64,000 bases of DNA from Bacillota bacterium. Its GTDB lineage: Bacteria; Bacillota; Clostridia; Acetivibrionales; JAMNYG01. The position numbers were made by a program, and so were the translations under genes. The notes beneath the pieces are model-generated. The model ran no database searches, was not told the origin of the DNA, and saw only the letters and a program-made list of their open reading frames with translations. Location of the stretch: NCBI GenBank assembly GCA_023622945.1, contig JAMNYG010000187.1:3940-67939 (forward strand), in the 5' to 3' direction. This document shows positions 3,302 through 55,040 of the stretch, in pieces. Numbering within the stretch: position 1 is the first letter of the stretch; every line of letters begins with the position of its first letter.

Positions 3302-3470
3302 AAAATATGCATGCTATATTATTGGATGAGCGGTTTGTAAACTACTGTACCAAATGATGCAGGTGGTTATGAACCGCTTTATTTAAGCCAAACTGCACAA
3401 TAAGACCGGTAATTTTCGAGGAAATTGTTGCATATCAGTCGAATATATAATATACTTTTATTATTAGAGT

Positions 3471-3500
3471 TTAGTATCAGAATTTAGTATCAGGTGATAA
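3471..3500 (+). promoter_or_regulatory. candidate FapR operator (duplicated TTAGTATCAG half-site followed by the partial palindrome TTAGTATCAGGTGATAA)
   Basis: ttagtatcag (3471-3480) and ttagtatcaggtgataa (3484-3500) lie just downstream of a possible promoter (TTGCAT 3428-3433, 17-nt spacer, TATACT 3451-3456). They are 25 nt upstream of fapR. They resemble the AT-rich TTAGTA...TACTAA-type inverted repeat bound by Bacillus FapR. Confidence 0.35.
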
Positions 3501-10403: not shown

Positions 10404-10592
10404 GATGTTCTTTACAAAAGATTCTGTAAAGAGTTTCTGCAAAGAGATTTTACGAAGAGATTTTACGAAGAGACTTTACAAAAAAATTTTGCAAAAAGAT
10501 TTTATAAAAAAGTTTTGCAAAAAGGTTTAAAGAAAAATTCTATAAAGAGATTCTGTAACAGGCTCTATAAAAAGATCCTACAAAAAGATAAA
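10404..10592. repeat. degenerate tandem repeat, 13-nt modal unit x~14 (ATTTTRCAAARAG)
   Basis: ...gattctgtaaagag/tttctgcaaagag/attttacgaagag/attttacgaagag/actttacaaaaaa/attttgcaaaaag/attttataaaaaag/ttttgcaaaaagg/... Two adjacent units are identical. The array fills the spacer between the radical-SAM gene and smc. Confidence 0.85.
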
Positions 10593-15651: not shown

Positions 15652-15755
15652 AGGTAAATCCTGATAAATTAGGTGAAGATATATTATGTGAGGATATAGC
15701 AGGTGAAGATATAGCAGGTAAAGATTTGGATAAAGATATGGCAGATTCAGTGATG
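15651..15755. repeat. degenerate tandem repeat, ~15-nt unit (AGGTGAAGATATAGC) x~6
   Basis: aggtaaatcctgataaatt/aggtgaagatatattatgtg/aggatatagc/aggtgaagatatagc/aggtaaagatttgg/ataaagatatggc. The array begins at the ylxM stop codon. Confidence 0.65.
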
Positions 15756-17792: not shown

Positions 17793-17818
17793 AAAAAGGC
17801 GTTTACCGCCTTTTTATT
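17793..17818 (+). terminator. rho-independent terminator after the KH-domain gene
   Basis: aaaaaGGCGtttacCGCCtttttatt. Confidence 0.7.
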
Positions 17819-17836: not shown

Positions 17837-17880
17837 TATTGTATTTCTTATTATAGCTATTGTATTTCTTATTATATAGC
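17837..17880. repeat. near-perfect direct duplication, 21-23 nt x2 (TATTGTATTTCTTATTATAGC)
   Basis: tattgtatttcttattatagc / tattgtatttcttattatatagc. Confidence 0.8.
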
Positions 17881-18514: not shown

Positions 18515-19255
18515 ATGCTTAGATTTGACGTTTTAACCCTTTTTCCTGAGCTTTTCAGGGTGGTGATGGGTGAAAGCATAATAGGCAGGGCTCAAAAGAA
18601 AGGGATAATTGAAATAAACCCGGTCAACATACGTGACTTCTCCACCGACAAACACAGAAAAGTGGATGATTATCCTTACGGCGGGGGAAAAGGGATGGTC
18701 ATGATGGCTCAGCCTATATACGACGCTTATCTTCACCTCATCAAGAGTCTGGATTATAAACCAAGGGTAATCTACATGTCACCCCAGGGAAAGGTTCTTA
18801 CTCAGGAAAAAGCAATAGAGCTGGCTTCTTATAATCATATAATCCTTCTTTGCGGTCATTATGAAGGAGTGGATGAAAGGGTACTGGAAGAAATAGTTGA
18901 TGAAGAAATATCCATCGGGGACTATGTTCTTACAGGAGGAGAACTCCCGGCCATGGTCCTCATTGATTGCGTAAGCAGGCTGGTGCCCGGTGTCCTTTCC
19001 GATGAAAACTCCTTTAAGGAAGATTCATTATACGATGGCCTTTTAGAGTATCCCCAGTATACACGACCTTACATTTTTAATGAAAAGAAAGTTCCTGACG
19101 TCTTATTGTCAGGACATCATGCCAAAATAGAAAGATGGAGAAAACTTCAGTCCATAGTAAGGACCTATTATAAACGGCCCGAACTTCTTAAAGACAGAAA
19201 TATTTCACCTGAAGACATAAGGAGTTTTGAAGAAGAGCTCAGGAATATGGAATAA
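18515..19255 (+). CDS. trmD: tRNA (guanine37-N1)-methyltransferase TrmD
   Basis: MLRFDVLTLFPE N-terminus, GHYEGVDERV, LTGGELPAMV. The ATG at 18515 is preferred over the track start at 18479. Confidence 0.95.
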   Translation: MLRFDVLTLFPELFRVVMGESIIGRAQKKGIIEINPVNIRDFSTDKHRKVDDYPYGGGKGMVMMAQPIYDAYLHLIKSLDYKPRVIYMSPQGKVLTQEKAIELASYNHIILLCGHYEGVDERVLEEIVDEEISIGDYVLTGGELPAMVLIDCVSRLVPGVLSDENSFKEDSLYDGLLEYPQYTRPYIFNEKKVPDVLLSGHHAKIERWRKLQSIVRTYYKRPELLKDRNISPEDIRSFEEELRNME

Positions 19256-19360
19256 AATTTATGCAAGAGCATGGAACAGAATTTCTGCAGGGACATGGAA
19301 CCAAATTACTGAAAGGGCATGGAACAGAATCACTGTAAGAGCATGGAAGAAACACTGCTG
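19240..19360. repeat. degenerate tandem repeat, 24-nt unit x5; the first unit is the last 16 nt of trmD (stop codon included) plus 8 nt
   Basis: caggaatatggaataaaatttatg / caagagcatggaacagaatttctg / cagggacatggaaccaaattactg / aaagggcatggaacagaatcactg / taagagcatggaagaaacactgctg. Confidence 0.85.
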
Positions 19361-19389
19361 CAGAAAAATACCGTGAAAGGTATAATTGC

Positions 19390-19431
19390 TTAGATAATTA
19401 TATTGTATTTTTAGATAATCATATTGTATTC
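19390..19431. repeat. direct duplication, 21 nt x2 (TTAGATAATYATATTGTATTY)
   Basis: ttagataattatattgtattt / ttagataatcatattgtattc. Confidence 0.8.
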
Positions 19432-19457
19432 GGGACATGACTGTTATATAATACCTC

Positions 19458-19473
19458 ATGTAATCCATTACAT
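19458..19473. promoter_or_regulatory. candidate LacI-family operator, perfect palindrome ATGTAAT-CC-ATTACAT
   Basis: A 7+2+7 perfect inverted repeat of the TGTAA..TTACA type typical of LacI/CcpA-family operators. It starts 5 nt downstream of a TATAAT (19447-19452) and lies ~70 nt upstream of the LacI-family gene. Confidence 0.45.
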
Positions 19474-19544: not shown

Positions 19545-20549
19545 ATGGCTACCATTGTTGATGTGGCAAGGGAAGCAGAGGTATCTGTTGCAACAGTATC
19601 CAGGGTATTAAACAACAGTACTTCTGTTTTGCCCAAAACACGTGAGGCAGTTCTTGAAGCAATTGAAAAACTGAATTACAAGCCGAATCTTCTGGGCAGG
19701 AATTTGAGAAGATCTCAGACCAAAATGATACTTGTGCTTCTTCCTACCGTATCAAATCCCTTTTACTCAGGAATAGTCAAGGGTATAGAGGATATCGGCC
19801 ATAAAAACGGTTACAATATAATGCTCTGTAACACCAACTCCGATTACCAGAGGGAAAAGACATACCTGGAGCTTCTTAAGAACAAGCTGTCCGACGGAGT
19901 TATATTCATGGCTCCTGAACTGAATGAGGAGGAACTGTCCGAAATAGGAAGCAAATATCCGGCGGTTCAATGCTGTGAATACAAGGAAGGGGCCTGCGTT
20001 TCCCACGTATCAATAGATAATTACAAAGCAGCATACGAAATAGTAAGCCACCTTATAGAGCTCGGACACAGGAGAATAGGGCTTATAGGAAGCAAAAGCA
20101 ACTGCATTTCATCCATCCAAAGACATGAAGCATATAAAAGGGCTTTGGAGGATAACGGCATTCAATTTGATACCGATCTTGTGGGCTATGGCAACTACAG
20201 TTACAAAAGGGCACTGAAGGCTGCAAAAGCTTTGCTTTCCCGTGACGACAGGCCAACGGCAATATTTGCAATCTCGGATATAATGGCAATAGGGGCCATA
20301 AGGGCTGCCAAAGAAGCCAGGTTGAGGGTACCGCATGATGTAGCAGTTGCAGGTTTTGACAATATTGATTTCGCTTCCATGTATGACCCCATGATAACTA
20401 CCATAGCGCAGCCAAGGTATGAAATGGGTTGCGTCGCCATGGAATTGCTCCTTAAGCAGATAAAAGGAGAGCTCGATGAGCCGAAAAGCATTATGCTTGA
20501 CTACAATCTGATCATCAGGGAATCTACCAAGGTAGATACCTTGAAGTGA
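19545..20549 (+). CDS. LacI-family transcriptional regulator
   Basis: N-terminal [26 protein letters not shown] plus a periplasmic-binding-protein-like sugar-binding core. The ATG at 19545 after GGAGG is preferred over 19521. Confidence 0.85.
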
Positions 20550-22644: not shown

Positions 22645-22820
22645 TTATAAAATATGCTTTATGACAAAGATGCCTGATAAATATGAAATATACTTCATAA
22701 TAAAAATACCTGATAACAACAAAAATATGTTTTATGGATAAAAATGCTTGGTAAAAAATAAAAATGTAGTTCATGGACAAAAAAACCTGATAAAACTATA
22801 AAAAATATCTGATGACATGA
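22645..22820. repeat. degenerate tandem repeat, ~38-nt unit x~4.5 (AAAAATATGYTTTATGRNNAAAAATRCCTGATAA)
   Basis: aaaatatgctttatgacaaagatgcctgataaat / atgaaatatacttcataataaaaatacctgataacaac / aaaaatatgttttatggataaaaatgcttggtaaaaaat / aaaaatgtagttcatggacaaaaaaacctgataaaac / tataaaaaatatctgatgac. Confidence 0.75.
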
Positions 22821-27070: not shown

Positions 27071-27115
27071 AGTAAGGAATATTATTTCCTTGCTTTATTT
27101 ATATATACGATTTCA

Positions 27116-27236
27116 GGCTAAATTTATACAAGGAGCTCGGCCTAAATTTATACAAGGAGTTCAGACCAAATTAAATCTAATGAGTTCAGATAAAATTTGT
27201 ACAGGGAATTCAGAATAAAACATCTCAAGGAGTGCA
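27116..27236. repeat. degenerate tandem repeat, ~24-25-nt unit x5 ending in the pyrB RBS
   Basis: ggctaaatttatacaaggagctc / ggcctaaatttatacaaggagttca / gaccaaattaaatctaatgagttca / gataaaatttgtacagggaattca / gaataaaacatctcaaggagtgca. The last unit carries the functional AAGGAG RBS of pyrB, and units 1-2 carry intact AAGGAG copies. Confidence 0.8.
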
Positions 27237-37590: not shown

Positions 37591-37688
37591 GCAGCTTAAT
37601 ACTGACAATTCATGTTGACAGCATGATGTTGATAATATGATTTTGATAGCCTAATATTGACAGCTTAATATTGATAACCTAATATTAA
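37591..37688. repeat. degenerate tandem repeat, ~14-16 nt unit (GAYARCYTAATATT) x~6
   Basis: gcagcttaatactgacaa.../gttgacagcatgat/gttgataatatgatttt/gatagcctaatatt/gacagcttaatatt/gataacctaatatt. Confidence 0.7.
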
Positions 37689-37730
37689 AAACACAAAGGC
37701 CCGTTTTACAGGAACCTTTGTGTTTTTTCT
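37688..37730. terminator. bidirectional rho-independent terminator (PFOR on +, DUF3787-like gene on -)
   Basis: aaaaACACAAAGG-15 nt-CCTTTGTGTtttttct, with an A-run on the left and a T-run on the right. Confidence 0.8.
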
Positions 37731-37739
37731 TAAATTCCG

Positions 37740-37907
37740 CTATTTTTGATTGGCGTCCACGTAATCCTTTGCATCGCGTACGTGGCTCTCGCTAGGTATT
37801 GTGACTTTGGAACCCGGCTTCATTTTCTCCACATTTGCCCAGGCTGCGGTATCGTGTTTCTCAATGGGCCTTGCCATACAACGTTCTTTTGATTTATTGT
37901 CGGCCAT
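37740..37907 (-). CDS. small DUF3787-like protein (55 aa)
   Basis: Below the 60-aa cutoff of the ORF track. Reverse-strand ATG (complement of 37905-37907) after GGAGGG. Translation: MADNKSKERCMARPIEKHDTAAWANVEKMKPGSKVTIPSESHVRDAKDYVDANQK. The PIEKHDTAAWAN...IPSE...AK.WVD.N core matches my recollection of the clostridial DUF3787 / spore-surface small-protein family. Confidence 0.6.
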   Translation of the reverse strand: MADNKSKERCMARPIEKHDTAAWANVEKMKPGSKVTIPSESHVRDAKDYVDANQK

Positions 37908-38157
37908 GCTATCCCTCCTTTAGAAATATTATTCCGCTTCAGTATCAAAAATTATCAGAACAAAATTTTTTTCAATGGCTTAAAATTTATGCTAAAATGA
38001 TTTGTATCAAGATTATATTTTGTATCAAATCGTAAGGAATAGTATAAAATCAGTTTTCGAATACTAATCACAGTCTTATTTGCCATTGATGGCAACATAT
38101 GTCAATAATAATTATGTGTAAAATTATATGCAAATAACGATAAAAGGAAGTGAAGCA

Positions 38158-44774: not shown

Positions 44775-45713
44775 ATGGAAAACGTACTTGTCATATTAGG
44801 TCCTACAGCATCCGGAAAAACAAGGCTTGCCATTGAACTTGCAAAAAGGCTGAACGGAGAAGTGATTTCAGCTGATTCCATGCAGGTATACAAATATATG
44901 GACATCGGAACCGCCAAGCCCGATGAAAAAGAAAGAGAGGGAATAAAGCATTATCTTATAGATGAAGTTGATCCTTCTGAGGAATTCAGCGTTGCCCGTT
45001 ACCAGAAGCTTGCTTATCAATATATAGATGAGGTGCTGTCCAAGGGTAAGTTGCCTATTGTCGCCGGAGGTACCGGACTTTACATAAATTCACTGATATA
45101 TAATATCAATTTCACTGAAACCGTAAGCGATTGGGAATTCAGGGAAAGGCTTAAAGCCGAAGCAGAGGAAAAGGGGAATGCATTTTTGCATGAAAGGCTT
45201 AAGAAAATTGATCCAAAAGCTGCAGCCAAAATCCATGTAAATGATTTGAAGCGTATAATAAGGGCTCTTGAAGTTTATGAGTATACCAGAAAACCTATAT
45301 CGCATCATCAGGAAGTTTCAAGGAAAAACCCTCCAAAATACCGCTTCATAATTTTAGGATTGACCATGGACAGGGAAAGGTTATACGATAGGATTAACAA
45401 AAGGGTGGATTTAATGATACAAAAAGGCCTGGTACAGGAAGTGAAAAGCCTTGTTGAACGGGGATTCGATACAAAATATACTTCCATGCAGGGACTGGGT
45501 TATAAAGAAATCATTTCTTATCTGAAAGGAGAGATGTCTCTTGATGATGCCATATACATTTTAAAAAGAGATACCCGCCGTTATGCCAAAAGGCAGATTA
45601 CCTGGTTTAAAAGGATCGAAGGAGTATACTGGCTTGACCTGGACAGGTTTAAAGACGCGGATGAGCTTACAGACGCAGCTGTTACATATGTAAAAAGTTT
45701 ATTGGTGTGTTAA
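44775..45713 (+). CDS. miaA: tRNA dimethylallyltransferase MiaA
   Basis: P-loop ILGPTASGKT, SADSMQVYKYMDIGTAKP. Confidence 0.95.
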   Translation: MENVLVILGPTASGKTRLAIELAKRLNGEVISADSMQVYKYMDIGTAKPDEKEREGIKHYLIDEVDPSEEFSVARYQKLAYQYIDEVLSKGKLPIVAGGTGLYINSLIYNINFTETVSDWEFRERLKAEAEEKGNAFLHERLKKIDPKAAAKIHVNDLKRIIRALEVYEYTRKPISHHQEVSRKNPPKYRFIILGLTMDRERLYDRINKRVDLMIQKGLVQEVKSLVERGFDTKYTSMQGLGYKEIISYLKGEMSLDDAIYILKRDTRRYAKRQITWFKRIEGVYWLDLDRFKDADELTDAAVTYVKSLLVC

Positions 45714-45751
45714 AAAAGATTTATTGGTTTATCAAAAAAATTATTATTTCC

Positions 45752-47380: not shown

Positions 47381-47425
47381 GTGAAATATTGATTATTGAA
47401 ATATTAATGATTGAAATACCGTTCA
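47381..47425. repeat. tandem repeat, 15-nt unit x3 (TTGAAATATTRATKA)
   Basis: gtgaaatattgatta / ttgaaatattaatga / ttgaaataccgttca. Confidence 0.7.
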
Positions 47426-48551: not shown

Positions 48552-50420
48552 TTATTTTGTGTTATCGGGGAAGCTTTCCAGTATTTTTTGCACTTCCTCT
48601 TCACTGTTCCTGTATATGTTGTATTTAAGGAATTCTTCATAGTAGAACCGGGAATTTTCATAGTCTTTAAGTTCATAGTAGGTATCACCCAGGTCGCGCA
48701 GGATGAAGGTGCACCTGTTGTCCAGTTCATACCCTGCTTTAAACGCCTTTAACGCTTCATTCAGGTTTCCTTTGGCTTTATAGGCAGAACCCAGGTTATG
48801 ATATGCATATACCGAAGGCTGTAGGTTGATTGCCTTACGGGCTTCTTCAATGCACCTGTCATATTGTTTATTCAAAAGGTAAAGCTTTGCAAGGTTGCAA
48901 TGAGCCGTGCTGTTTGAATATCTAAGTTCAATGGCCTTAAGAAACTCCTTCTCAGCCAGAAGGAACAATTCCTGGTCTGTAGCGCCTGTTTCTTCATATT
49001 TGTTAAGATATTCGCCGGCCAGCACGCTGTGGGCCCTGTCACTGTTGGGCGCTTTTTTCACTACATCCGACCATAACCGAATACCGTCGCTGTATATATA
49101 ATTTCTTCTCAGGGTAAGCCCCGAGTAGAATAAAATGGCCACGCACGTAAAGATGACAAATACCTTTAACGGCTTTTTAAAAAGATATCTCTTTGATGTG
49201 CCGTCACCCCGGGATTCATCAAATATCATTCCCAGTACAAACATTATAAATCCTGCAAGAGGGAAGTACAGCCTGTGCTCGAAATAGACATCCTTAATTG
49301 AAATAAATGAGGACTCCACCGAAAGCCCTATAAAGAACCACAGGATACCAAGGGAAACAAGCTTGTTTCTCTTGATGTTAAGCAGTGAGAAGATGCCTAT
49401 CATGCAAAGTATTATCAATGAAATATATGAATTGTTCTCCAAAAGGCTTCGGGAAATGGGGTAATCATCGCTGTAGTCAAAGTTCTGCCCTATGGGTACG
49501 AATAAAAGCCTTATATAATGAAGAATGACATTCAGCTGGGTATAAAAATAATGCATGCGGTTCATTGATGTGCTTGCCTTGAAGGTTACATCAGGATCAC
49601 TCTGGCTGTACCCTTTAAGAAAAAGCAAGGTTCCGGGAATTATCGGAACGGTAAGAAGAAGCATAAAAGCGATGAACGCTCTTTTAAGCCATGACGTTTT
49701 TCCGTCCTTCAGAAAGAACATAAACTCAATGAGGATGAGCATAAAGGGTATGGTAATGGTATTTTCCTTTGTATACATTGCCATAACGGTAAAGAGCAAT
49801 GTCAGAACAAAATAATACGCCTTGTCCGATATCCTGAACCTAAGGTAAAAATAAACTGCCAGCAAGTAAAATGTTGCTGCCAGGGAAGCGGTACGCTGCA
49901 CTATATATGTCACCGCATTAACCTGTATGGGGTGGCACACGAATATCAGGGCTGATACCAAAGACACCATGGTTGAATATTTTGAAATGAGTTTGTCCTG
50001 AAACTGCTTCAGTCCCAGTAAGCTGCGCATTACCAGGAAGACAAGGATTCCGTTGAATATATGGATCAATGTATTTACGATGTGATATCCCACCACGTGA
50101 GTATCATGTATGAAATAATTTATAGATAAGGTGAAGTACAGTATGAACCTATTGGAGTAAAAATCCCATATGGCTTTAAAATCCAGAGGGTTTCTTATGG
50201 AATAATTGTTAACGATGGAACCGAAGTCATCAAGGGTAAAAGGCGCAGTAAAGCTGTTGGAGTAGACCAGCAGCGCAAGCAGGGCTATCATGCCGAAACA
50301 TAAGGCTTTTTTTTCGGCCAGCAACATCTCAATACCTTCGATGTCGCGCCTTTTCACCATTTCAGTCATTTTCCCGAATGTGCTTGTCATTGTTCTGAAT
50401 CTGCTTATCATAACCTGCAA
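48552..50420 (-). CDS. TMTC/PMT-like GT-C-fold membrane glycosyltransferase with C-terminal TPR repeats
   Basis: About 11 predicted TM helices. The first loop carries SFTAPFTLDDFGSIVNN (a DD motif in the position of the catalytic D-D/E of PMT/TMTC/ArnT-type GT-C enzymes). A C-terminal ~170-aa TPR block follows (AHCNLAKLYLLNKQYDRCIEEARKAINL..., YHNLGSAYKAKGNLNEALKAFKAGYEL...). The likely start is TTG 50420 or ATG 50411 after GAGGATGA. Confidence 0.6.
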   Translation of the reverse strand: MQVMISRFRTMTSTFGKMTEMVKRRDIEGIEMLLAEKKALCFGMIALLALLVYSNSFTAPFTLDDFGSIVNNYSIRNPLDFKAIWDFYSNRFILYFTLSINYFIHDTHVVGYHIVNTLIHIFNGILVFLVMRSLLGLKQFQDKLISKYSTMVSLVSALIFVCHPIQVNAVTYIVQRTASLAATFYLLAVYFYLRFRISDKAYYFVLTLLFTVMAMYTKENTITIPFMLILIEFMFFLKDGKTSWLKRAFIAFMLLLTVPIIPGTLLFLKGYSQSDPDVTFKASTSMNRMHYFYTQLNVILHYIRLLFVPIGQNFDYSDDYPISRSLLENNSYISLIILCMIGIFSLLNIKRNKLVSLGILWFFIGLSVESSFISIKDVYFEHRLYFPLAGFIMFVLGMIFDESRGDGTSKRYLFKKPLKVFVIFTCVAILFYSGLTLRRNYIYSDGIRLWSDVVKKAPNSDRAHSVLAGEYLNKYEETGATDQELFLLAEKEFLKAIELRYSNSTAHCNLAKLYLLNKQYDRCIEEARKAINLQPSVYAYHNLGSAYKAKGNLNEALKAFKAGYELDNRCTFILRDLGDTYYELKDYENSRFYYEEFLKYNIYRNSEEEVQKILESFPDNTK

Positions 50421-50532
50421 ATCATCCTCATTTTAGAAAATCATACGGAATTTTTTGAAAACCATACGGACAATCATCATTTCAACCAAACGGATGATTA
50501 TCATTTCCCGGCCAAAATTATGATTTCCTGCC
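50421..50532. repeat. degenerate tandem repeat, ~24-26-nt unit x~4.5, spanning the stop of the SLH/GH18-like gene and reaching the RBS of the GT-C/TPR gene
   Basis: Minus-strand reading: ggcaggaaatcataattttggccg / ggaaatgataatcatccgtttggtt / gaaatgatgattgtccgtatggtttt / caaaaaattccgtatgatttt / ctaaaatgaggatgat. The stop TGA is inside unit 2. Confidence 0.7.
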
Positions 50533-53717: not shown

Positions 53718-54889
53718 AGAAAATTATACTGGTAAGATACGGAGAGATAATGTTAAAAGGTCTGAACAGATCCCATTTTGAAAACAAGCTTGTAAGCAAC
53801 ATTAAAAAAGCCATACAGCAATACGGAAATGCAGATGTAATCAGGTCCCAGGGAAGGATATATGTAGAACCCCTTTCCGATGACTATGACTTTGATGCAG
53901 CCTTAAGCAGATTGACAAAGGTTTTCGGCATTGTATCCGTAAGCCCTGTATTGAAAATAGAATCAGATCTTGAAGAAATATTGAATACATCTCTTGCCGT
54001 TGCAAAGGATGTTGTTGAAAATAAAGGCTTTAGAACCTTTAAGGTTGAAACAAAAAGAGGGAACAAGAACTTTCCCATGCAATCACCTGAACTCAGCAGG
54101 AAAGCCGGAGCAAGAATTCTTTCCAATATACCCCGGCTTTCGGTTGATGTCCACAATCCGGATTTTATATTATATATAGAAGTCAGGGAATCATCCTATG
54201 TATATTGGGAAATCATACCCGGCTACGGGGGTATGCCGGTAGGTACCAACGGAAAAGCTGTCCTTCTTTTGTCAGGGGGAATTGACAGTCCCGTAGCAGG
54301 ATGGATGGTGTCAAAAAGGGGTGTGGAGATAGACGCCGTACATTTTTACAGCTACCCTTATACCAGTGAACGGGCAAAAGAAAAGGTTATTGACCTGGCA
54401 AAAATTCTGGCACAGTATTGCATGCACATAAATCTTCACATAGTTCCCTTTACCGAAATTCAACTGGAGATCAACGACAAGTGTCCTCAGGACCAGGGGA
54501 CTATACTCATGAGAAGGGCGATGATGAAAATCTCTGAAAGAATTGCCAAATCTACGGGAGCACAGGCATTGATCACGGGGGAAAGCATCGGCCAGGTTGC
54601 CAGCCAGACCATGGAAAGCCTTGTTGTGACCAATGCTGCAGTAAGCATGCCTGTATTTCGGCCCCTGATAGGTATGGATAAAAATGAGGTAGTTGAAATT
54701 GCAAGAAAGATAGATACTTACGAGACCTCAATACTTCCATACGAGGACTGCTGTACGGTATTTGTGGCAAAACATCCTACAACAAAGCCTCAGCTTAATA
54801 AGATACTGCTTTCTGAGCAAAGGCTTGATCTGGACCAGCTCATTGAAAAAGCCATTGCCAATACGGAGGTATTAAGTATATCCGGATGA
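53714..54889 (+). CDS. thiI: tRNA 4-thiouridine synthase / thiamine biosynthesis protein ThiI
   Basis: N-terminal ferredoxin-like plus THUMP region and the PP-loop LLSGGIDSPVA. 391 aa, with no rhodanese domain. Confidence 0.9.
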   Translation: MKKIILVRYGEIMLKGLNRSHFENKLVSNIKKAIQQYGNADVIRSQGRIYVEPLSDDYDFDAALSRLTKVFGIVSVSPVLKIESDLEEILNTSLAVAKDVVENKGFRTFKVETKRGNKNFPMQSPELSRKAGARILSNIPRLSVDVHNPDFILYIEVRESSYVYWEIIPGYGGMPVGTNGKAVLLLSGGIDSPVAGWMVSKRGVEIDAVHFYSYPYTSERAKEKVIDLAKILAQYCMHINLHIVPFTEIQLEINDKCPQDQGTILMRRAMMKISERIAKSTGAQALITGESIGQVASQTMESLVVTNAAVSMPVFRPLIGMDKNEVVEIARKIDTYETSILPYEDCCTVFVAKHPTTKPQLNKILLSEQRLDLDQLIEKAIANTEVLSISG

Positions 54890-55040
54890 CCTTGCATTTT
54901 GACAATAACATGGTAATTTGACAATACCTTGAGGTATTAAACATATCCGTATGACCTTGTATTCTGATGATAACGCAGTAGCTTGATGATACCAAAGTAA
55001 TTTGATAATAAAATAGTTAATTTTATAATAACATATTGGA
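54866..55040. repeat. 65-nt direct duplication whose first copy contains the last 8 codons and stop of thiI, with nested ~22-nt sub-repeats (TTTGAYRATAMC)
   Basis: Copy A 54866-54930: gaggtattaagtatatccggatgaccttgcattttgacaataacatggtaatttgacaatacctt. Copy B 54931-54995: gaggtattaaacatatccgtatgaccttgtattctgatgataacgcagtagcttgatgataccaaa. The tail reads gtaatttgataataaaatagttaattttataataac. Confidence 0.85.

Follow-up and report, generated by a model that had tools for sequence, protein, structure and literature searches.

MIRUs (mycobacterial interspersed repetitive units) are tandem repeats of tens of bases that occur in operons, in the spacers separating co-directional genes, where their ends overlap the flanking stop and start codons; they form a dispersed family with one consensus and contain small ORFs. 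Bacterial satellites were surveyed by Subirana & Messeguer (2019; PMC6749651), who obtained medians of 0-3 per Mb, called densities above 4 per Mb high, and described the satellites of Clostridium difficile as 'unique and unrelated'. The array considered here lies at the 3' end of trmD, which encodes tRNA m1G37 methyltransferase, within a window of 64 kb (by which we mean the whole stretch of DNA analyzed). It has the properties by which a minisatellite is recognized, i.e. at least three head-to-tail copies of a 10-100 nt unit in an arrangement beyond chance.

The array comprises five head-to-tail units of 24 nt at positions 19240-19359, with no spacers between them, as seen both on reading the sequence and in a repeat search. 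All units are read on the forward strand, the same as trmD. Unit 1 (CAGGAATATGGAATAAAATTTATG, 19240-19263) holds the last trmD codons, R-N-M-E, followed by the stop codon TAA (19253-19255) and 8 nt beyond it, so that the overlap with trmD amounts to the first 16 nt of the array only and the rest is outside the coding sequence. Units 2 (CAAGAGCATGGAACAGAATTTCTG, 19264-19287), 3 (CAGGGACATGGAACCAAATTACTG, 19288-19311), 4 (AAAGGGCATGGAACAGAATCACTG, 19312-19335) and 5 (TAAGAGCATGGAAGAAACACTGCT, 19336-19359) follow, unit 5 being the last of the array. The ATGGAA core of unit 1 is kept in units 2-5, with cores at 19247, 19271, 19295, 19319 and 19343, an exact 24-nt spacing, and reading the sequence gives CAG, CCA, CAG and GAA in units 2-5 at the position of the TAA. 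In the trmD frame a second stop occurs as TAC TGA at 19307-19312, the TGA (19310-19312) straddling the junction of units 3 and 4. In all of these respects the initial annotation, which had described a fivefold 24-nt array starting inside trmD, was borne out by TRF, by the repeat search and by the core spacing.

TRF called the array at 19247-19352 with a period of 24, 4.4 copies, 76% matches and a score of 107, and gave a score of 122 to a call with period 48. A separate repeat search placed in-register copies at 19240, 19264, 19288 and 19312. Unit 1 is identical to units 2 and 3 at 18/24 positions each, and units 2 and 3 are likewise identical to each other at 18/24; as unit 1 matches these two as well as they match one another, it belongs fully to the array. 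Units 2 and 4 are identical at 20/24 positions. Decay is furthest advanced in unit 5, which seems to have lost 2 nt 3' of the core; in ungapped register its identity is 13-15/24 with units 1, 2 and 4 and 11/24 with unit 3. The boundaries are sharp on both sides: the 24 nt beyond unit 5 match units 1-5 at only 5-8/24 positions, and the 24 nt before unit 1 match the array consensus at only 8/24 by hand count.

A chance origin of the array is excluded. The highest TRF score in 100 simulated windows (order-2 Markov) was 73, and in 200 sets of simulated intergenic DNA (order-3) it was 67, compared with 107 and 122 for the trmD array. A JGI contig of 4.7 kb (L081), recorded independently and encoding an identical TrmD, is 100% identical through the array, which makes a contig-specific assembly artefact unlikely. 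A CRISPR array was also considered and was rejected because the units abut without unique spacers.

The trmD gene (18515-19255, forward strand) is preceded by a GGAGG ribosome binding site and encodes a protein of 246 aa, a length within the range of the homologues listed (227-258 aa, mostly 239-250 aa). Pfam domain PF01746 is assigned to a protein identical to the TrmD of the window. When TrmD was aligned over its full length with 11 homologues, its tail could be aligned with theirs up to a shared end point, and none of the 11 carries the repeat unit. The protein ends in ...PEDIRSFEEELRNME, the variable part of which, KDRNISPEDIRSFEEELRNME, aligns with homologue tails such as ERLSLSKEDKKKLQEILEQ. 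Judged by these alignments, TrmD is intact and not truncated.

A protein search among 5.8 billion proteins gave no relative of this TrmD above 74% identity, and an exact-protein look-up returned one other contig only, the identical L081, and no strain variant. The nearest named species by TrmD are Pseudobacteroides cellulosolvens (72%), Acetivibrio thermocellus (70%) and A. clariflavus (68%). Placed from TrmD alone, the source organism would represent an unsampled lineage near Hungateiclostridiaceae, an uncultured relative of Acetivibrio.

We consider it likely that the trmD array is a non-coding, decaying minisatellite that goes back to a neutral tandem duplication in which the final 16 bases of the gene were included. 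Replication slippage or unequal exchange would have given rise to a tandem copy of a 24-nt segment (19240-19263) made up of these 16 bases, which end with the trmD stop, and the 8 nt that follow. Since the first copy keeps the intact end of trmD, such a duplication costs TrmD nothing and is invisible to selection on the protein. The array would then have grown to five units, and as units 2 and 4 are identical at 20 of 24 positions, the last expansion step was probably that of a 48-nt double unit. In the copies 3' of the stop, drift would have reduced the identity to about 75% and removed the TAA. One of the two origins proposed in the initial annotation, a duplication of the gene end whose copies lost the stop, fits the locus well, the gene being intact and the later copies free to drift. 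We infer the mechanism of duplication, its neutrality and the transcription of the array, and likewise that the array has no sequence-specific function.

The same logic would apply at the 5' ends of genes, where the last copy would retain the ribosome binding site. Duplication that spares gene edges in this manner would account for the position of the arrays, which border on genes or reach a little way into them without ever running deep, for their unrelated units, and for their occurrence in 5', 3' and convergent spacers alike. The trmD array would be one product of a strong tendency of this genome to make intergenic DNA from local tandem duplications.

The census of arrays in the window (merged arrays with a TRF score ≥50 and a period ≥10) counted 15, against 0.45 expected from Markov simulation, and 14 of them fall in non-coding DNA, which makes up roughly 10% of the window. 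An array is present in 13 of the 27 intergenic regions of at least 80 nt, where composition would lead one to expect 0.09. The periods are 13, 14, 15, 21, 22, 24, 25, 39 and 65 nt. Six arrays have at least four copies, corresponding to about 90 per Mb over the 64 kb. Apart from the array at trmD, degenerate arrays are located at 1132-1204, 3457-3493, 10411-10589, 15663-15725, 17837-17876, 22649-22804, 27097-27219, 37592-37686, 45692-45748, 47382-47418, 50365-50507 and 54866-55035. The trmD unit resembles the units of other arrays no better than shuffled controls do (lowest uncorrected p = 0.05 of 10 comparisons). As it is without clear similarity to these units, the array looks locally derived, and a dispersed repeat family was rejected on the same ground.

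Several of these arrays duplicate signals at the edges of genes. Two of them, at 45692-45748 and at 54866-55035 (there over 54866-54993), have the geometry seen at trmD, in that each starts within the 3' end of the gene before it and duplicates the stop of that gene; in the former, TAA has become CAA in the second copy, and in the latter the TGA is kept. The array at 27097-27219 (24 nt, five copies) carries an AAGGAG-like Shine-Dalgarno sequence in each unit, and its last copy, just before the ATG at 27232, serves the next gene; we regard it as the 5'-end counterpart of the trmD array. The array at 37592-37686 has a gene end on one side and a bidirectional terminator on the other. On the reverse strand of the surrounding 671-nt spacer there is also a small ORF without annotation, of about 55 aa (MADNKSKERCMARPIEKHDTAAW..., 37745-37925), which converges on the bidirectional terminator at 37692.

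TRF coverage of the window is 2.0%, about six times the 0.34% found over the 80 related trmD loci listed. The stretches compared differ in this respect: 20 kb of A. thermocellus contain only about two intergenic arrays and L082 (74% TrmD identity) contains none, and L004, the closest among the genome-collection matches listed (73% TrmD identity), is array-rich like the window. A 30-nt array of two copies at L004:1352-1410 starts inside the 3' end of ylxM and covers the ylxM-ffh spacer. The ylxM-ffh spacer of the window holds an array as well, of 15 nt and four copies.

For comparison of the loci themselves, 80 related trmD loci were listed from a genome-collection scan, with TrmD 54-73% identical and flanks of up to 4 kb. 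The initial annotation had pointed to the absence of rplS after trmD, and there is indeed no rplS in the whole 64-kb window. This absence is part of a true synteny break relative to A. thermocellus (L083) and L084 (72% TrmD identity), in both of which trmD is followed by a promoter, a leader, rplS, lepB, ylqF and rnhB, a set of features of which the window has none; it is not unusual among relatives, however, as rplS is missing from the fetched flank (up to 4 kb) in 65 of the 80 loci listed. By gene order, the trmD array sits exactly at the break with A. thermocellus and L084. Synteny also breaks after trmD in L082.

The loci that retain the linkage have a conserved trmD-rplS spacer in common (L083:10745-10895, L084:10733-10882, L069 and L002), consisting of a TTTACA-N17-TATAAT promoter and a leader, GGAATACGGACGGTCCGCTGT...ACAAGAACGTCT. 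This leader is a weak match to the Rfam family L19_leader (18.7 bits; gathering score, 36) and may be a divergent clostridial L19 leader. Its conserved block GGAATACGGACGGTCC is absent from the window, in which there is no match to L19_leader either. The idea that the array spacer is a remnant of the ancestral rplS promoter and leader was rejected, since only the generic GGTATAAT is in common and the conserved leader block is absent. It appears instead that the spacer arose where the ancestral trmD-rplS linkage broke, with a LacI-regulated sugar island now downstream. The initial annotation took unrelated, non-repetitive DNA after trmD in relatives as evidence against its reading, and such DNA is what was found: no trace of the unit follows trmD in the compared relatives and their downstream DNA is unrelated, a weak test given that their TrmD is at most 74% identical. 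When metagenomes were scanned for three CATGGAA cores spaced by 24 nt, at least 120 matches were returned, with unrelated 12-nt and 24-nt repeats among the matches listed; this pattern was too permissive, the best linker identity being 10/17 and the source contig not being among the matches listed.

Upstream of the array the gene order is ftsY, ylxM, ffh, rpsP, a KhpA-type KH-domain gene, rimM and trmD. A hairpin and T-run can be read from the sequence after the KH gene (17794-17815), and suggest that rimM-trmD may form a transcription unit of its own. The site scan found no terminator-like site between trmD and the LacI-family gene downstream, so the rimM-trmD message probably extends into the array, which would form its untranslated tail. 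Inside the array the same scan found no promoter-like or terminator-like site, and Rfam gave no credible match to the array region at gathering or permissive thresholds. Folding of the array RNA gave z = -1.65 for the forward and -1.0 for the reverse strand, neither of which is significant. A perfect 9-nt inverted repeat, TTTCTGCAG at 19282-19290 and CTGCAGAAA at 19358-19366, flanks units 3-5; it provides the sole long stem in the predicted RNA fold and has no T-run after it.

Beyond the array, a distinct 21-nt direct repeat of two copies (TTAGATAATYATATTGTATT, 19390-19430, forward strand; TRF score 75) contributes, with its second copy, a -35-like TTGTAT (19424-19429). Together with TATAAT at 19447-19452, after a 17-nt spacer, this forms a candidate promoter for the LacI-family gene, read from the sequence on the forward strand; it falls below the promoter-scan threshold and was hence not listed by the scan. 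Just after the TATAAT, about 70 nt upstream of the LacI-family gene, is the perfect palindrome ATGTAATCCATTACAT (19458-19473, forward strand), likely an autoregulatory LacI-family operator, and we take the TTGTAT-17-TATAAT and the palindrome as the putative promoter and operator of that gene. Another 21-nt repeat of two copies is present upstream of rimM (17837-17876) and shares the core TATTGTATTT with the one upstream of the LacI-family gene. This core may be a duplicated -35-like promoter element. The LacI-family regulator gene itself (19545-20549, forward strand; PF00356, PF13377) is followed by genes for ThuA (PF06283), a GFO/IDH/MocA oxidoreductase (PF01408) and a xylose-isomerase-like protein (PF01261), and then by lspA and rluD. 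This LacI/ThuA/GFO-IDH-MocA/xylose-isomerase-like sugar island stands where rplS would be.

The main alternative to a neutral minisatellite, which we regard as unlikely, is that the array presents phased binding sites, with one protein bound to each conserved (C)ATGGAA(C) core. The protein might be a DNA-binding regulator acting on the promoter of the LacI operon 100-200 bp downstream, where a plausible promoter and operator are present, or an RNA-binding protein, such as a CsrA-like GGA binder or the KhpA KH-domain protein encoded two genes upstream in the same gene cluster, on the 3' tail of the trmD message, which is unstructured and rich in purines. All 5 units have the same core and vary in their linkers (p ~0.012 for a six-column invariant run under random placement), each core contains an A-N-GGA motif, and the RNA is predicted to be weakly structured and hence accessible. 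Selection on a binding motif could account for the invariant core, but so can the shared ancestry of just five related copies. The GGA motifs are not consistently presented in hairpin loops, the 24-bp period is a non-integral number of DNA helical turns, and the likely LacI operator is a different, palindromic sequence. A window search for the 14-nt motif at 0 mismatches found it inside the array only, and at up to 3 mismatches found 17 matches against 8.8 expected, with no other array of the motif; the motif at other targets or in relatives, by which an iteron or transcription-factor array would be recognized, was found neither in the window nor in the compared relatives. Arrays of unrelated units occupy half of the intergenic regions of the window, one of them between convergent gene ends, which makes a site-specific explanation of the trmD array unnecessary. 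Sigma-54 sites, ECF -35/-10 elements, cre, the CodY box and the LacI operator were compared by eye as consensus sequences with the units and set aside, as spacing or key positions misfit.

It is also conceivable, but in our judgement very improbable, that the arrays of this genome are a maintained feature and that the trmD array is a binding or stability platform on the rimM-trmD message. Local tandem expansions would in that case be selected because they lengthen intergenic or untranslated regions or, alternatively, because they show repeated single-stranded motifs to a general RNA-binding protein, e.g. the KhpA of the operon. The invariant core and the abundance of the arrays, roughly 100-fold over expectation, are compatible with this reading. 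The excess could reflect function rather than a mutational habit, which counts against neutrality, as does the somewhat raised share of periods divisible by three (roughly half of the arrays by our own count).

The other origin proposed in the initial annotation, namely that TrmD once had a translated octapeptide repeat at its C-terminus, of which a new stop left the array as a relic, we find hardly credible. The period is divisible by three, as it requires, and in a distant TrmD (L031) a 24-nt array of 6.3 copies is translated into an 8-residue repeat tail, which indicates that TrmD tails can tolerate such repeats; that repeat is, however, unrelated in sequence to the one at hand. TrmD in the window has a normal length and its tail is aligned with those of relatives up to the end. 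The trmD frame is not continuous through the units either, and read-through of the TAA would give only 18 more codons before the TGA. The variable columns of the array are distributed over trmD-frame codon positions 1, 2 and 3 as 4, 6 and 5, i.e. without the excess at third positions expected of coding variation. Codon usage was scored as log-odds trained on the long genes of the window and compared with in-frame 120-nt pieces of real genes, which score 0.41 ± 0.14 per codon with a 5th percentile of 0.16. The array frames score -0.10, -0.14 and -0.18 per codon on the forward strand and 0.03, -0.54 and -0.38 on the reverse strand; no frame of the array has gene-like codon usage, all six being at or below 0.03, and the peptide implied by the trmD frame, C-K-S-M-E-Q-N-F, has the value of -0.10 against 0.41 for genes.

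We give next to no credence to a small repeat peptide translated from the array in some other frame, be it a 25-aa ORF (MQEHGTEFLQGHGTKLLKGHGTESL, 19261-19338) or a 49-aa frame without stops from one end of the array to the other (19227-19376): of the six frames, two do remain open throughout, and the HGT frame has several synonymous unit differences (CAA/CAG, GGA/GGG and ACA/ACC, by our own reading of the columns), but a stop-free 24-nt unit stays open in a given frame automatically, so that openness is uninformative, the codon scores of -0.18 and -0.14 lie under the 5th percentile of real genes, the 25-aa ORF has no credible ribosome binding site but only a GGA 9 nt before its ATG, and the sole start of the 49-aa frame is a TTG inside trmD.

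Read as a decaying minisatellite, the trmD array shows that tandem duplication can begin in the last codons of a gene without harming it, and it carries the warning that an in-frame period is not evidence of a lost peptide repeat. About half of the intergenic spacers seem to have been made by local tandem duplication, at a density far above that of most bacteria surveyed. An unusual replication or repair background could be the cause, or selection on spacer length.

Among known systems with repeated motifs, the sponge RNAs of the CsrB/RsmY type resemble the array in their regularly spaced A-N-GGA motifs, the array having five AUGGAA cores. Unlike in CsrB/RsmY, the GGA of the array is not placed in hairpin loops (in MFE and centroid folds), the motifs number only five, and the stretch has no promoter, terminator or Rfam match of its own. 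A 24-nt-period array at the 3' end of trmD is also seen at L031:1021-1959 (PWHA01000354.1, a Halanaerobiaceae MAG), which encodes a TrmD of 312 aa with an E/N/L-rich tail of 8-residue repeats, e.g. EENNELAR, from the array at L031:1762-1913. There the array is part of the ORF and differs in sequence, whereas the array of the window comes after the stop and is without coding signal.

With MIRUs the trmD array shares its nature as a spacer repeat and the overlap with a stop codon. It differs from them in that the units of the other arrays have no clear similarity to its own and in that it has no coding-like frame.

The closest likeness is to the non-coding minisatellites and satellites of bacteria (VNTR-type), which are head-to-tail arrays of a 10-100 nt unit, intergenic and short, with the unit not transposed elsewhere. 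As its copies are about 25% diverged, the trmD array is an old array and not a hypervariable VNTR. It is unlike the surveyed satellites (PMC6749651) in that its first unit overlaps the stop codon of a gene. The window density of about 90 per Mb compares with survey medians of 0-3 (PMC6749651), a rough comparison as the detection criteria differ. The trmD array is thus an ordinary member of the bacterial non-coding minisatellites, and the more notable feature is the abundance of such arrays in this genome.
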